Shown here: in pieces, positions 6,620-8,059 of the stretch
Position numbering within the stretch: the stretch's first letter is position 1
How the letters are laid out: every line of letters starts with the position of its first letter
Source of the DNA: Candidatus Binataceae bacterium
GTDB taxonomy: Bacteria; Desulfobacterota; Binatia; Binatales; Binataceae
NCBI GenBank assembly: GCA_030038355.1
Contig: JASHPB010000273.1
Coordinates: forward strand, 85,221 to 149,220
Length of the DNA stretch: 64,000 bases
Reading direction: 5' to 3'
Translations under genes and position numbers: made by a program
The notes under the pieces: model-generated
Seen by the model: the letters and a program-made list of their open reading frames with translations, nothing else
The model's database searches: none
Told to the model about the DNA's origin: nothing

Positions 6620-6862
6620 TCAAAACTTCATCACAGGCTGCCCGACGCTCGGCGGCGTTTCGTCGCTGAACATCACCGGCATGTAACCGCCGCCTCCCGC
6701 ACTGACCAATCCTGAGAGCGTGGCAGCCTCCTGCTGGGCGCCCGGAAAGCCGACGTTCTTCGCCGCGCCCAGCGAGCCGCTGGCCGCTTTCAAAGCTCCA
6801 AGCTTGGTGGCTCCGTTCGCCAACGCTTGCTTGAACGAGTTCTTTAGAACGCCGCCTGCCAC
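6620..6862 (-). CDS. Small Ala/Gly-rich hypothetical protein (80 aa)
   Basis: GTG start with a GGAGAGGG Shine-Dalgarno 7 nt upstream. It is co-directional with the two low-complexity ORFs upstream of it. There is no signal peptide and the sequence is low complexity. Confidence 0.3.
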   Translation of the reverse strand: MAGGVLKNSFKQALANGATKLGALKAASGSLGAAKNVGFPGAQQEAATLSGLVSAGGGGYMPVMFSDETPPSVGQPVMKF

Positions 6863-7124
6863 GCCGAGTCCCTCTCCAACTCACCCTAGCGCCGAACGCT
6901 GTCGCGACCTGCGTCGCAGCCCCGGGCTCATCGGCTGCGCCATTGAGCGCGGAAGTTCTGGTTGGCGAATTGCGTCGCTGCCTGGTTCGCTCCCTGGAGA
7001 TTATTGCTCCCGCTTGGAGCGAGTTCGCGACACTGTTGCTTGTCTCGTTTCGCGTAATAGCGGGCGCGTGTCCATTGATCGCGAGCGGCCCGGTGTTTGG
7101 CTGGCCAGTGCCGTACGACGGCGG

Positions 7125-7535
7125 CTACATGTTGCGCGCGATGTTGTTGACGAAGTCATTCAGTCCCTTGAGAGGACCGTGGCCAGTGCCATTGCCGGGA
7201 TTCTGAGGCGCATTTATTGGGTGGCACCCTGCCGCGCGGCGCCGCCGGGATTGCCGCCCGGATCCCACTTCGCTGCGGGCGGGAGGATTCCCTCCACCGC
7301 CGGCGTTGTCAGGGGAAATTGGTGAACCGTTCGCTGTCTGTCCGCCGCTGGCGGTAATTCCACCGCCTCGAGCGGGAGCGCTCGAGCCGCCGCCAGGAGA
7401 TATGCCGCCACCTGATGACGGATTCGCCGCGGATCGCGGACCTCTAGGCTGCTGCGGAGTTCCACTGTTAGGTGCCTGCTGTGGAGATCCGCCGCCAGGA
7501 ACTCCGGGCACGCCGCCTTGCGTCAAATCGGTCAT
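7125..7535 (-). CDS. Gly/Pro/Ser/Asn-rich low-complexity protein (136 aa)
   Basis: Its ATG overlaps the stop of the upstream ORF in a TGATGA arrangement. The C-terminal segment GLNDFVNNIARNM is non-repetitive. GC3 is about 61%, against about 79% in neighbouring genes. Confidence 0.35.
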   Translation of the reverse strand: MTDLTQGGVPGVPGGGSPQQAPNSGTPQQPRGPRSAANPSSGGGISPGGGSSAPARGGGITASGGQTANGSPISPDNAGGGGNPPARSEVGSGRQSRRRRAAGCHPINAPQNPGNGTGHGPLKGLNDFVNNIARNM

Positions 7536-8059
7536 CAGCGGTGCCCGGCTGGCTCATGATCTGGGCGATCCGCCGTTGATGCTCCGCCGCCTCGATCGCG
7601 CGCTCTCGCTTGATCGCTTTCAAGTGCGCTTTGCTGCTGCTGCTCCTCTTCGTCGGCGAGTTGGTCTTGCTTATCCTCTGAATTGTTGTCGTTGTGCTCG
7701 ATCTCCTTGTCCGTTTGGTCGTGGCGCACATTCTCGGATCGAACGTCGCAATCCAATGCGGCATCGGCAGAATCGTGCCGATCATCCTCCGCCACGAGCA
7801 AGTTCTGCGTCCCGATATCGCAGCTGTTGCAGACATCCATCGTCGCGCTGAGGTTAAAAGTCTGCGTACTTTGCGCGAAGGCAGAAGTAGTAGCCAAACG
7901 GCCCAAGCTGCCCGCGATCAATGCGATTCGCTCGAACGAGATCTCACGCTTCACCTCTCGTCGGCCGCGGGCCTCACAGAGGACAGCCCAGGTAAAAGTG
8001 TGGGCGAAAAGGCCATCCAACCGCCAAATGTTGGCGATCGCCGATACTGCCGAGAGCAT
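7535..8059 (-). CDS. Putative secreted acidic (Asp/Glu/Gln-rich) protein. The start is uncertain.
   Basis: The ORF track extends this frame into the acyl-CoA dehydrogenase gene, so the real start must be internal: either Met63 at about 8059 or the GTG at about 7954. After that point comes a signal-peptide-like IALIAGSLGRLATTSAFAQS. The body contains CNSCDIG and runs of D/E/Q. GC3 is about 70%. Confidence 0.35.
   Translation of the reverse strand: MLSAVSAIANIWRLDGLFAHTFTWAVLCEARGRREVKREISFERIALIAGSLGRLATTSAFAQSTQTFNLSATMDVCNSCDIGTQNLLVAEDDRHDSADAALDCDVRSENVRHDQTDKEIEHNDNNSEDKQDQLADEEEQQQQSALESDQARARDRGGGASTADRPDHEPAGHR

Follow-up and report, generated by a model that had tools for sequence, protein, structure and literature searches.

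Three adjacent open reading frames as the probable remains of one secreted-protein gene in an uncultured Candidatus Binatus bacterium

Three co-directional ORFs at 6620–8059 of the window (the whole 64,000-nucleotide stretch that was analysed) are very probably fragments of a single decayed gene for a secreted protein, whose partner gene is dead too; judging from sequence, we put the probability of this reading at about 0.93. The region is homologous to single long proteins, is collinear with them across reading frames, carries stops and frameshifts, and occurs in two independent assemblies. What this uncultured soil bacterium (Candidatus Binatus) carries here is an ordinary pseudogene and no novel cassette of three genes, and the value of the result for the window is mainly corrective: an apparent three-gene orphan cassette becomes one dead gene and its dead neighbour.

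We propose that the 2.2-kb stretch between the acyl-CoA dehydrogenase and DUF1329 genes is a wrecked convergent gene pair. The minus strand from ~7954 to 6690 holds a pseudogene whose ancestor encoded a large, modular Sec-secreted protein, and the plus strand at 6112–6572 the pseudogene for that protein's membrane-anchored partner of ~240 aa. A deletion, presumably a single event, appears to have taken the 3′ ends with which the two genes faced each other. What survived of the large gene was then reduced by about five frameshifts and two nonsense codons to short open frames, ORF1–ORF3 among them, while two frameshifts and one nonsense codon cut up what was left of the partner.

The three ORFs and the family they resemble

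An earlier note on this DNA described three minus-strand ORFs, which are present where it placed them; their compositions, the CNSCDIG in ORF1 and the terminal GLNDFVNNIARNM of ORF2 are also as it reported. With the terminator that precedes them, they are:

ORF1, 7535..8059, minus strand: D/E/Q-rich, with CNSCDIG inside
ORF2, 7125..7535, minus strand: G/P/S/N-rich, with GLNDFVNNIARNM as its C-terminal end
ORF3, 6620..6862, minus strand: A/G-rich, with a GTG start
Intrinsic terminator of the acyl-CoA dehydrogenase gene, 8062..8099, minus strand: GC-rich hairpin, then UUUUGUUUUG

The lengths of the ORFs lie within chance expectation, as dinucleotide shuffles of the 2.2-kb gap yielded 9.5 ORFs that reach 80 aa or more and 2.4 that reach 136 aa or more. 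Their coding signals are another matter. ORF1 has a period-3 chi-square of 36.5, matched by none of 3817 null ORFs; the signal of ORF3 is also beyond chance and that of ORF2 is weaker, and both ORF1 and ORF3 have host-like codon scores. Chance ORFs in junk DNA were ruled out by the period-3 and codon-score tests and then by homology, and the view that this minus-strand DNA is coding, now or formerly, is upheld. GC3 measured 0.66, 0.59 and 0.75 for ORF1, ORF2 and ORF3, and 0.77–0.78 for the flanking genes, close to the ~61–70% against ~79% first given, except that ORF3 falls outside the range. Reduced GC3 is likewise seen in intact family members, and the intact P0005 gene has in its N-domain, linker and middle domain the position-specific GC pattern of ORF1, ORF2 and ORF3, respectively; low GC3 is a property of the family.

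ORF1 does contain a Sec-type signal peptide, but this is not N-terminal if ATG 8059 is taken as the start. That codon directly adjoins the U-run of the acyl-CoA dehydrogenase terminator, codon periodicity is absent from 8059–7955, and GTG 7954 is the start indicated by the family alignment. The terminator hairpin has a fold energy of −33.4 kcal/mol (z = −2.5), and strain differences at 8097 and 8077 preserve or lengthen its stem; lying directly 5′ of ATG 8059, it marks the upstream limit of the pseudogene region. A non-coding RNA was considered and rejected, the lone weak palindromic Rfam match being this hairpin. Tandem repeats in the region are negligible.

The parent family came to light only in an exhaustive HMMER pass that used no profile. 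None of the three ORFs gave a match in Pfam, NCBIfam, PHROGs or PADLOC, in agreement with the original statement that no family was recognised. A word-indexed search of 5.8 billion proteins returned nothing for ORF1 or ORF2 and only ORF3 itself for ORF3. Two metagenome scans with ORF1 and ORF3 and the 80-species synteny comparison were equally empty, and neither ORF1 nor ORF3 has a sequence match among solved structures in the PDB. Single-sequence AlphaFold models of ORF1 (pLDDT 49) and ORF3 (pLDDT 64, three low-confidence helices) were too poor for a fold search. Exhaustive phmmer with ORF1, by contrast, found eight matches among 1.84 billion representatives, with a best E-value of 3e-30. The complete relatives are 593–781 aa long, and ORF1 corresponds to their N-termini only. 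We found no paralogues elsewhere in the window.

These relatives (P0003–P0010) form an unnamed family of large secreted modular proteins, whose known occurrence is so far limited to Binatus-type genomes and metagenome contigs that are unassigned. The intact layout runs from a signal peptide through an acidic N-domain of ~110 aa with a CxxC and a G/P/S/N-rich linker to an A/G-rich middle domain, which is followed by a second linker and then a variable C-terminal domain. This C-terminal module varies between relatives. The reference for most of what follows is P0005, a 781-aa hypothetical protein of a sister Binatus species; it and the orthologue at locus L088 come from Candidatus Binatus MAGs (GCA_037025005.1 contig JBAIIG010003036.1; GCA_049577365.1).

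Alignment of the region to single long proteins

Among full-length relatives, P0005 comes closest across the entire region and is collinear with window positions 7960–6690 at 50% identity. The alignment uses all three frames, passing through ORF1, an unlisted frame, ORF2, "intergenic" DNA and ORF3. With frameshifts allowed, it starts at P0005 residue 9 and is reliable to ~445 (window 7960 to ~6690), with 220 identities in 440 positions and a score of ~790; the nulls scored 59±7 (Markov DNA) and 106±9 (shuffled protein). By tblastn, P0005 and P0003 gave collinear HSPs in frames −1, −2, −3, −2 and −1 spanning 7960–6707, one of which (7226–7005) reads through the ORF2 stop. Relative to P0005, the region has ~5 frameshifts, a count that is approximate in the low-complexity sequence of 6884–6940 and past 6690, along with two in-frame stops, and the C-terminal third or more is absent. 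The ancestral gene can be followed in these parts:

Piece 1 (most of ORF1), 7634..7954, minus strand: ancestral GTG start, Sec-type signal peptide (…SAFA|Q) and acidic N-domain
Piece 2, 7543..7623, minus strand: frame −2, outside all three ORFs; encodes LKAIKRERAIEAAEHQRRIAQIMSQPG, the end of the N-domain
Piece 3 (ORF2), 7128..7541, minus strand: third frame; G/P/S/N-rich linker 1 and start of the middle domain (LKGLNDFVNNIARNM)
Nonsense codon TAG, 7125..7127, minus strand: the ORF2 stop, across which P0005 homology is uninterrupted (KMAPPPSTGTGQPYTGPLAINGH versus NM*PPSYGTGQPNTGPLAINGH)
Apparent ORF2–ORF3 spacer, 6884..7124, minus strand: middle domain continued, aligned to P0005 300–380
Nonsense codon TGA, 6881..6883, minus strand: just 5′ of ORF3 (…ALG*VGEGLGVAGG…)
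Piece 4 (homologous part of ORF3 plus 18 nt upstream), 6690..6880, minus strand: A/G-rich helical part of the middle domain

The N-terminal part is the best preserved, with 63% identity to P0003 over the N-region. Family signal peptides end in A-x-A|Q, with A27 and Q28 the same in all eight aligned sequences, and the window has VKREISFERIALIAGSLGRLATTSAFA|Q. The N-domain motifs of the family, namely CNSCD (in 5/8 sequences), EDD-x-HD, ENV-x-HD and KQE-x-LA-x-E-x-ERHQ, are present in the window copy; piece 1 carries CNSCD, EDDRHD and ENVxHD and matches P0003 7–105 at 65% and P0005 9–117 at 48% by tblastn. A 1-nt frameshift at ~7624 then moves the reading into piece 2, which matches P0003 108–134 at 63% and P0005 120–146 at 56%. 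The conserved helix RAIEA-x-RH…IMA-x-AGKLLS survives here as LKAIKRERAIEAAEHQRRIAQIMSQPG, but out of frame.

The second frameshift, at ~7542, gives rise to the TGATGA sequence. The beginning of ORF2, MTDLTQGGVPGVPGGG, corresponds to KLLSDLTQNGAPGVPNGG of P0003, and in P0003 and P0005 the residues flanking the junction belong to one chain (…IMAKAGKLLSDLTQNG…), not to two cistrons. Thus the overlap of the ORF1 TGA with the ORF2 ATG exists as described, but the translational coupling read into it does not follow, since the junction is a frameshift site. Piece 3 aligned to P0003 166–186 and P0005 263–340, and homology continues into the spacer, with a frameshift at ~7018 and more frame changes at ~6939 and ~6887. 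P0005 383–440 then matches 6880–6707 at 57% identity. The Shine-Dalgarno-like GGAGAGGG does lie 7 nt 5′ of the ORF3 GTG; the motif, however, supplies the codons for G-E-G-L within the conserved GKGLGVAGG. Both the stop–start overlap and this motif are by-products of frameshifts within the ancestral reading frame.

Taken together, the linker and middle domain (LKGLNDW…GTGQPYTGPLAINGH…GKGLGVAGG…) occupy 7535–6707 at 50–57% identity to P0005, broken by two stops and several frameshifts, and minus-strand homology stops at ~6690–6707. Residues 446–781 of P0005 have no tblastn match anywhere in the window, and no other C-terminal module was found there. The window copy lacks a single uninterrupted ORF of ~600–800 aa and the C-terminal domain, which makes it a family pseudogene and not a working member. 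We infer that no functional full-length product is made. A secreted-protein origin with low-complexity, probably disordered, stretches, as proposed at the outset, agrees with the alignment.

The original interpretation was of three functional small genes: one acidic and secreted, one Gly/Pro/Asn-rich and translationally coupled, and one Ala/Gly-rich with its own ribosome-binding site. The frames are open, ORF1 and ORF3 have periodicity and host-like codon scores, the TGATG overlap and the well-spaced GGAGAGGG look like translation signals, ORF3 appears in public annotation, and all three strain substitutions in ORF2 and ORF3 are synonymous. We nevertheless consider this interpretation very unlikely. 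The three ORFs, the unlisted 7543–7623 and the 6863–7124 spacer are all collinear with single proteins of 593–781 aa, so that homology crosses the ORF boundaries, the stops and a frame outside every ORF, and the conserved N-domain is cut mid-way. Periodicity is the expected remnant of a recently dead gene. None of the three was found as a separate gene anywhere in protein, metagenome or synteny searches.

Adjacent co-directional ORFs that match successive parts of a longer protein in different frames, with residual codon periodicity and private indels in close strains, are what split or decayed bacterial pseudogenes look like. The unusual feature is the parent, an unnamed family detectable only by exhaustive search; for this reason its fragments look like orphans to curated libraries and word-indexed searches, and some "ORFans" of high-GC MAGs are probably pieces of modular genes that are rare and evolve fast. 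ORF3 is the only gene called in the region in the source record; being a pseudogene fragment that stands as a protein in the public record, it should carry a pseudogene-fragment flag. ORF2 was never called by gene callers.

Strain comparison and the alternatives to gene decay

An independent Illumina contig (L081; MEGAHIT-style contig naming, Nextera adapter at its end) represents a 99.4%-identical strain. Its piece 2 sequence is the same, and the frameshifts at ~7624, 7542, 6939 and 6887 and both stops are common to the two. Each strain also has one private indel: the ~7018 frameshift in the window, where L081 has an extra T at 7019 that preserves the ancestral frame, and a 1-bp deletion at 7215 in L081, which by frameshift removes the only non-repetitive segment of ORF2 and so speaks further against three functional genes. 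Disruptions common to both strains, with a private indel in each, indicate that the decay is real, old and continuing. Four synonymous and two non-synonymous substitutions separate the strains in the ORF frames, too few to show relaxed selection.

Could the gene be intact, and the frameshifts errors of assembly or sequencing in low-complexity, GC-rich DNA? Relatives are split in other assemblies too, and the ~7018 frameshift is missing from L081. Against these points, an independent short-read assembly has four of the frameshifts and the two nonsense codons in identical form; the nonsense codons are substitutions, not indel errors; the frameshift sites lie outside long homopolymers; and the C-terminal module is wholly absent and the partner gene decayed as well. 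Error is thus a most improbable account. The family gene is broken in three of the six loci examined, at differing break points. The L086 copy, on a contig with long-read-style naming, is split into 269+60+279 aa; the L088 copy is split into 310+527 aa by a single frameshift, and the same split recurs in a second assembly (L089).

Breakage this frequent, at three of the six loci, might point to contingency behaviour, in which programmed frame changes, by ribosomal frameshifting or phase variation, would yield a conditional full-length protein. We regard this as exceedingly improbable. The frame changes are too many and run in both directions, two nonsense codons accompany them, the junctions have neither slippery heptamers nor simple-sequence tracts, the break points vary by locus, and the C-terminal module is missing.

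A less drastic departure from complete gene death is that 7954–7535 is still expressed as a 139-aa truncated secreted protein retaining some N-domain function. The start codon, the signal peptide and ~107 N-domain residues are intact, and this segment has the strongest periodicity in the region. On the other side, the interval from terminator to start showed no promoter-like site, no Shine-Dalgarno lies at a usable distance (though just about one-third of genes here have one), the last conserved N-domain helix is lost through frameshift, two of the three strain differences in the ORF1 frame are non-synonymous, and the full ORF is called by neither assembly's gene caller, with L081 having calls only for ORF3 and for a partial 3′ end of the ORF1 frame. 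Such survival seems unlikely, and the most that ORF1 could still yield is a secreted, truncated N-domain of 139 aa that ends in an out-of-frame tail. A residual role may nonetheless attach to that product, or to ORF3 with its good Shine-Dalgarno-like motif and host-like codon score.

The convergent partner and affinities of the intact family

Decay of the large gene is accompanied by decay of its neighbour, which tblastn with a 242-aa protein from sister-species contig L083 and frameshift-aware alignment to three partner proteins revealed as:

Partner relic, 6112..6572, plus strand: matches residues 36–190 of a membrane-anchored protein of ~230–242 aa at 50% identity

The relic is frameshifted at ~6240 and ~6428, has a stop in frame at 6465, and is without its N-terminal anchor and last ~50 residues. 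Just ~120 nt separate it from the end of minus-strand homology. The partner is convergent with, and directly downstream of, the large gene in all five loci compared, being intact in four (L083, L085, L086 and L088) and partial in L087.

On L083 the intact gene pair adjoins an orthologous nitroreductase gene (80% aa identity), and orthologues of the acyl-CoA dehydrogenase (91%) and a methyltransferase (81%) lie ~6 kb away. P0005 and the window copy thus share a convergent partner and these three orthologues nearby, as well as collinearity from signal peptide to middle-domain end (50% overall, 57% in the ORF3 part); P0005 differs in being uninterrupted and in having the second linker and a C-terminal domain of ~220 aa. 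The suggestion of recently acquired DNA is not borne out, as region GC equals genome GC and the intact pair sits near orthologous genes in the sister species. A mobile-element origin was rejected in view of the lack of plasmid or phage similarity, notable flanking repeats or GC deviation. Eighty Binataceae loci around the acyl-CoA dehydrogenase orthologue showed no similarity to 5917–8120 by blastn, tblastn or tblastx; the initial idea drawn from them, that a variable site here held non-coding DNA or orphans specific to the lineage, was superseded by homology.

The parent family and its conserved partner, with modular C-termini, offer a modest starting point for the study of effectors in an uncultured phylum. 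Tentatively, and reading from sequence features, the pair could be an undescribed two-gene module constituting a new polymorphic effector or toxin system that natural populations have repeatedly inactivated, with the window holding a dead copy. The large protein may be Sec-secreted, with an acidic CxxC N-domain, disordered Gly/Pro-rich linkers and an Ala/Gly-rich middle domain leading to a swappable effector-like C-terminal domain, perhaps an NleH-like kinase or an EF/ExoY-like cyclase depending on lineage; the partner may be its invariant, convergent, membrane-anchored companion. Like polymorphic toxins, the intact relatives have alignable first 140–160 residues, differing C-terminal parts and repeated decay; among P0003, P0005, P0006 and P0008, BLASTP aligned just the N-terminal ~100–160 residues. 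Unlike in those systems, the adjacent partner is convergent, not co-directional. Partners are homologous (36–37% identity, E ~1e-40) between loci with differing C-terminal domains, and so the partner is not an immunity protein tied to one such domain. The intact family showed no known secretion-system marker domain.

None of the full-length relatives or partners reaches a curated threshold in Pfam or NCBIfam, and P0005 and P0008 have no significant match among solved structures. For the relatives' C-termini, toxin-domain matches stayed below threshold, and P0003 and P0006 gave none at all. The weak sub-threshold hints in other relatives' C-termini are to Pfam Anthrax_toxA (E = 0.05, 14 bits, cut-off 25) and to the NleH1 effector kinase (E = 0.5), and P0009 scored 23.0 bits against SIMPL, below the cut-off of 25.2.

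Three reading frames between the acyl-CoA dehydrogenase and DUF1329 genes

The three low-complexity ORFs that lie between the acyl-CoA dehydrogenase and DUF1329 genes are fragments of one pseudogene, and with the remains of a second gene facing it this pseudogene makes up a decayed convergent gene pair. All three ORFs were found on the minus strand at the positions and with the compositions reported in the earlier note, as were the CNSCDIG and GLNDFVNNIARNM segments and the TGATGA junction. The GGAGAGGG motif, previously taken for a Shine-Dalgarno sequence, lies 7 nt 5′ of the ORF3 GTG.

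Features of the region
4636..5916, DUF1329 gene, flanking the ORF region
6112-6572, plus strand, relic of the convergent partner gene, matching residues 36-190 of a 242-aa protein at 50% identity
6620..6862, minus strand, ORF3, 80 aa
7125..7535, minus strand, ORF2, 136 aa
7535..8059, minus strand, ORF1, 174 aa
8062-8099, minus strand, intrinsic terminator of the acyl-CoA dehydrogenase gene
8121..9248, acyl-CoA dehydrogenase gene, flanking the ORF region

By exact look-up, the source record has gene calls for ORF3 and the dehydrogenase and none for ORF1 or ORF2. The ORF3 fragment, 6620-6862 (-), is recorded in NCBI and ENA sources as a predicted protein, P0001; this annotation is a gene-calling artefact on a pseudogene and is in need of correction. 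No match to the ORFs came from Pfam, NCBIfam, PHROGs or PADLOC, nor from PDB with ORF1 and ORF3 as queries. In a word-indexed search of 5.8 billion proteins ORF1 and ORF2 had no hit, and ORF3 hit only an identical copy. Rfam yielded no families apart from a weak match on the terminator palindrome, and no paralogues of the ORFs were found within the window. The dehydrogenase assigns the window to Candidatus Binatus / Binataceae, with orthologues at up to 91% amino-acid identity in 80 species-level loci, none of which showed DNA or protein similarity to 5917-8120. Gene content 3′ of the dehydrogenase differs from species to species, the site being an accessory-DNA hotspot. In L002, L009 and L080 (~11126-12890), a 1.75-kb low-GC (53%) insert 3′ of the dehydrogenase orthologue holds an unknown gene that overlaps a DUF5131 gene (Pfam E = 5e-97). 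A foreign GC signature was rejected, the GC of 5917-8120 being that of the rest of the genome, as was a plasmid or phage origin, with no similarity to either.

Dinucleotide shuffles of the 2.2-kb gap served as the null for ORF length and periodicity. For ORFs of 80 aa or longer the mean count per shuffled gap was 9.5, and for those of 136 aa or longer it was 2.4; ORF lengths here are unremarkable at 62.6% GC. The codon-position periodicity of ORF1 (chi-square 36.5) was matched by 0 of 3817 null ORFs, far beyond the null, and ORF3 and ORF2 fell in its top 0.3% and 0.7%, respectively. By host codon-usage score, ORF3 was exceptional, ORF1 in the top 0.3% and ORF2 ordinary. Periodicity was absent over the 105 nt from ATG 8059, which abuts the U-run of the strong terminator hairpin 3′ of the dehydrogenase gene, to GTG 7954. 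It was also absent from the minus strand across 5917-6619, as expected.

Fragments of a single ancestral gene

An exhaustive phmmer search with ORF1 from the 7954 start as query, run against 1.84 billion representatives, retrieved eight proteins (E 3e-30 to 1e-4). The complete relatives are 593, 634, 658 and 781 aa long, and ORF1 covers just their first ~115 residues. By tblastn, the relatives gave collinear matches to the window spread over all three minus-strand frames, here listed for P0005, the 781-aa protein of a sister Binatus species, and P0003, another relative.

Collinear tblastn matches of relatives to the window
P0005 9-117, window 7960-7634, frame -1, ORF1
P0005 120-146, window 7623-7543, frame -2, outside the frames of all three ORFs
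P0003 166-186, window 7484-7422, frame -3, ORF2
P0005 263-340, window 7226-7005, frame -3, end of ORF2, crossing its TAG stop
P0005 323-355, window 7059-6961, frame -2, "spacer" between ORF2 and ORF3
P0005 383-440, window 6880-6707, frame -1, ORF3 and 18 nt upstream

A purpose-written frameshift-aware alignment, reliable to about residue 445 (window ~6690), placed P0005 from residue 9 onward on the window from 7960 onward at 50% identity (220/440). It requires frameshifts at ~7624, 7542, 7018, 6939 and 6887 and crosses an in-frame TAG stop at 7125-7127 and an in-frame TGA stop at 6881-6883. It scored ~790, where random DNA scored 59±7 and shuffled protein 106±9. Residues 446-781 of P0005 have no corresponding sequence in the window.

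The family alignment sets the ancestral start at GTG 7954 (window MKREISFERIALIAGSLG… versus MKSRSIRIALIAGSLG… in P0003) and shows no variation at the signal-peptidase site A|Q. At the TGATGA overlap two frames meet within …IMAKAGKLLSDLTQNG…, and the GGAGAGGG motif is the codons for G-E-G-L of a conserved GKGLGVAGG. GC3 is 0.66 in ORF1, 0.59 in ORF2 and 0.75 in ORF3, against 0.77-0.78 in the flanking dehydrogenase and DUF1329 genes. Position-specific GC in ORF1 (0.64/0.46/0.66), ORF2 (0.67/0.69/0.59) and ORF3 (0.62/0.53/0.75) parallels that of the intact P0005 gene in its N-domain (0.64/0.45/0.72), linker (0.67/0.69/0.63) and middle domain (0.69/0.59/0.79), respectively. Low GC3 is therefore a family trait and not a mark of foreign DNA.

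Two short strain contigs of an ENA assembly (MEGAHIT-style names, one with a Nextera adapter at its end) cover 6567-7706 at 99.4% identity and 7719-9536 at 98.5%, with nine substitutions and two single-base indels within the region. The indel at 7215 frameshifts ORF2 and deletes its sole non-repetitive segment; the other, at 7019, falls in the ORF2-ORF3 "spacer". In frameshift-aware alignment, strain contig L081 has the frameshifts at ~7624, 7542, 6939 and 6887 and both stops in common with the window, retains the ancestral frame at 7018 and carries a private break near 7215. The disruptions are thus real, older than the strain split and still accumulating. The sister strain's terminator has two substitutions, 8097 G>A and 8077 G>C, that give A-U in place of a G·U pair and eliminate a bulge; the stem is thereby preserved or extended. 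Across 9249-9536, divergence from strain contig L082 is ~7%, against 0.35%, all synonymous, in the adjoining dehydrogenase gene; this step may mark the edge of a recombined segment, or else the contig end may be chimeric.

The convergent partner and the parent family

The sister-species contig L083 carries the 781-aa gene intact. Downstream of it come a 242-aa gene in convergent orientation and then a nitroreductase, and the dehydrogenase and methyltransferase orthologues (91% and 81%, respectively) are ~6 kb off. The partner relic at 6112-6572 (+) faces the large pseudogene and is interrupted by two frameshifts and, at 6465, a stop codon. The partner's last ~50 residues have no corresponding sequence in the window, and only ~120 nt separate the two relics; the absence of both facing 3′ ends together with this short gap suggests that one deletion took them. 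At ~3400-3863 (-), in the ORF-poor stretch 2897-3927, a fragment corresponds to a GT87 glycosyltransferase over residues 261-415 alone and is probably a further gene relic, adjoining the nitroreductase; the PMT_2 gene and GT87 N-terminus of L083 are missing from the window.

In 5/5 loci examined, the gene directly downstream is a convergent, homologous partner of ~230-242 aa that has a hydrophobic anchor at its N-terminus, and partners from distant loci share 36-37% identity (E ~1e-40). By BLASTP, full-length members of the large secreted family have only their N-terminal ~140-160 residues in common. P0005 and the L088 orthologue share the window copy's middle domain, and C-terminal modules differ among members (P0005 ~560-781; P0008 ~420-634; loci L083, L085). 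No member or partner matched a curated family. The P0008 C-terminus shows weak similarity to Pfam Anthrax_toxA (EF/CyaA/ExoY cyclase family; E = 0.05, 14 bits, below the cut-off of 25) and that of P0005 to the NleH1 effector kinase (E = 0.5, sub-threshold), similarities that may serve as leads, not assignments.

Inactivation of the large gene is recurrent in this family. At L086 8001-9857 it is split into 269+60+279 aa, compared with 634 aa in intact P0008, and at L088 5001-7546 a single frameshift, at GILK|GLNDW, leaves 310+527 aa, with the same split in a second assembly, L089. There is nothing unusual in the decay of such a gene pair; the sole mildly novel element is the parent family, which is unnamed and rare. 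It comprises eight clusters at 50% identity in a set of 1.84 billion representatives, and its sole member with a source name is from Candidatus Binatus, two others being in Binatus-type contigs and the rest from metagenome contigs (some background on the phylum is given in PMC8262859). There are hints that the large-gene/partner module can occupy mobile or rearranging regions. At L087 1622-3540, family member P0006 is immediately 3′ of transposase genes (rve, DDE_Tnp_1).
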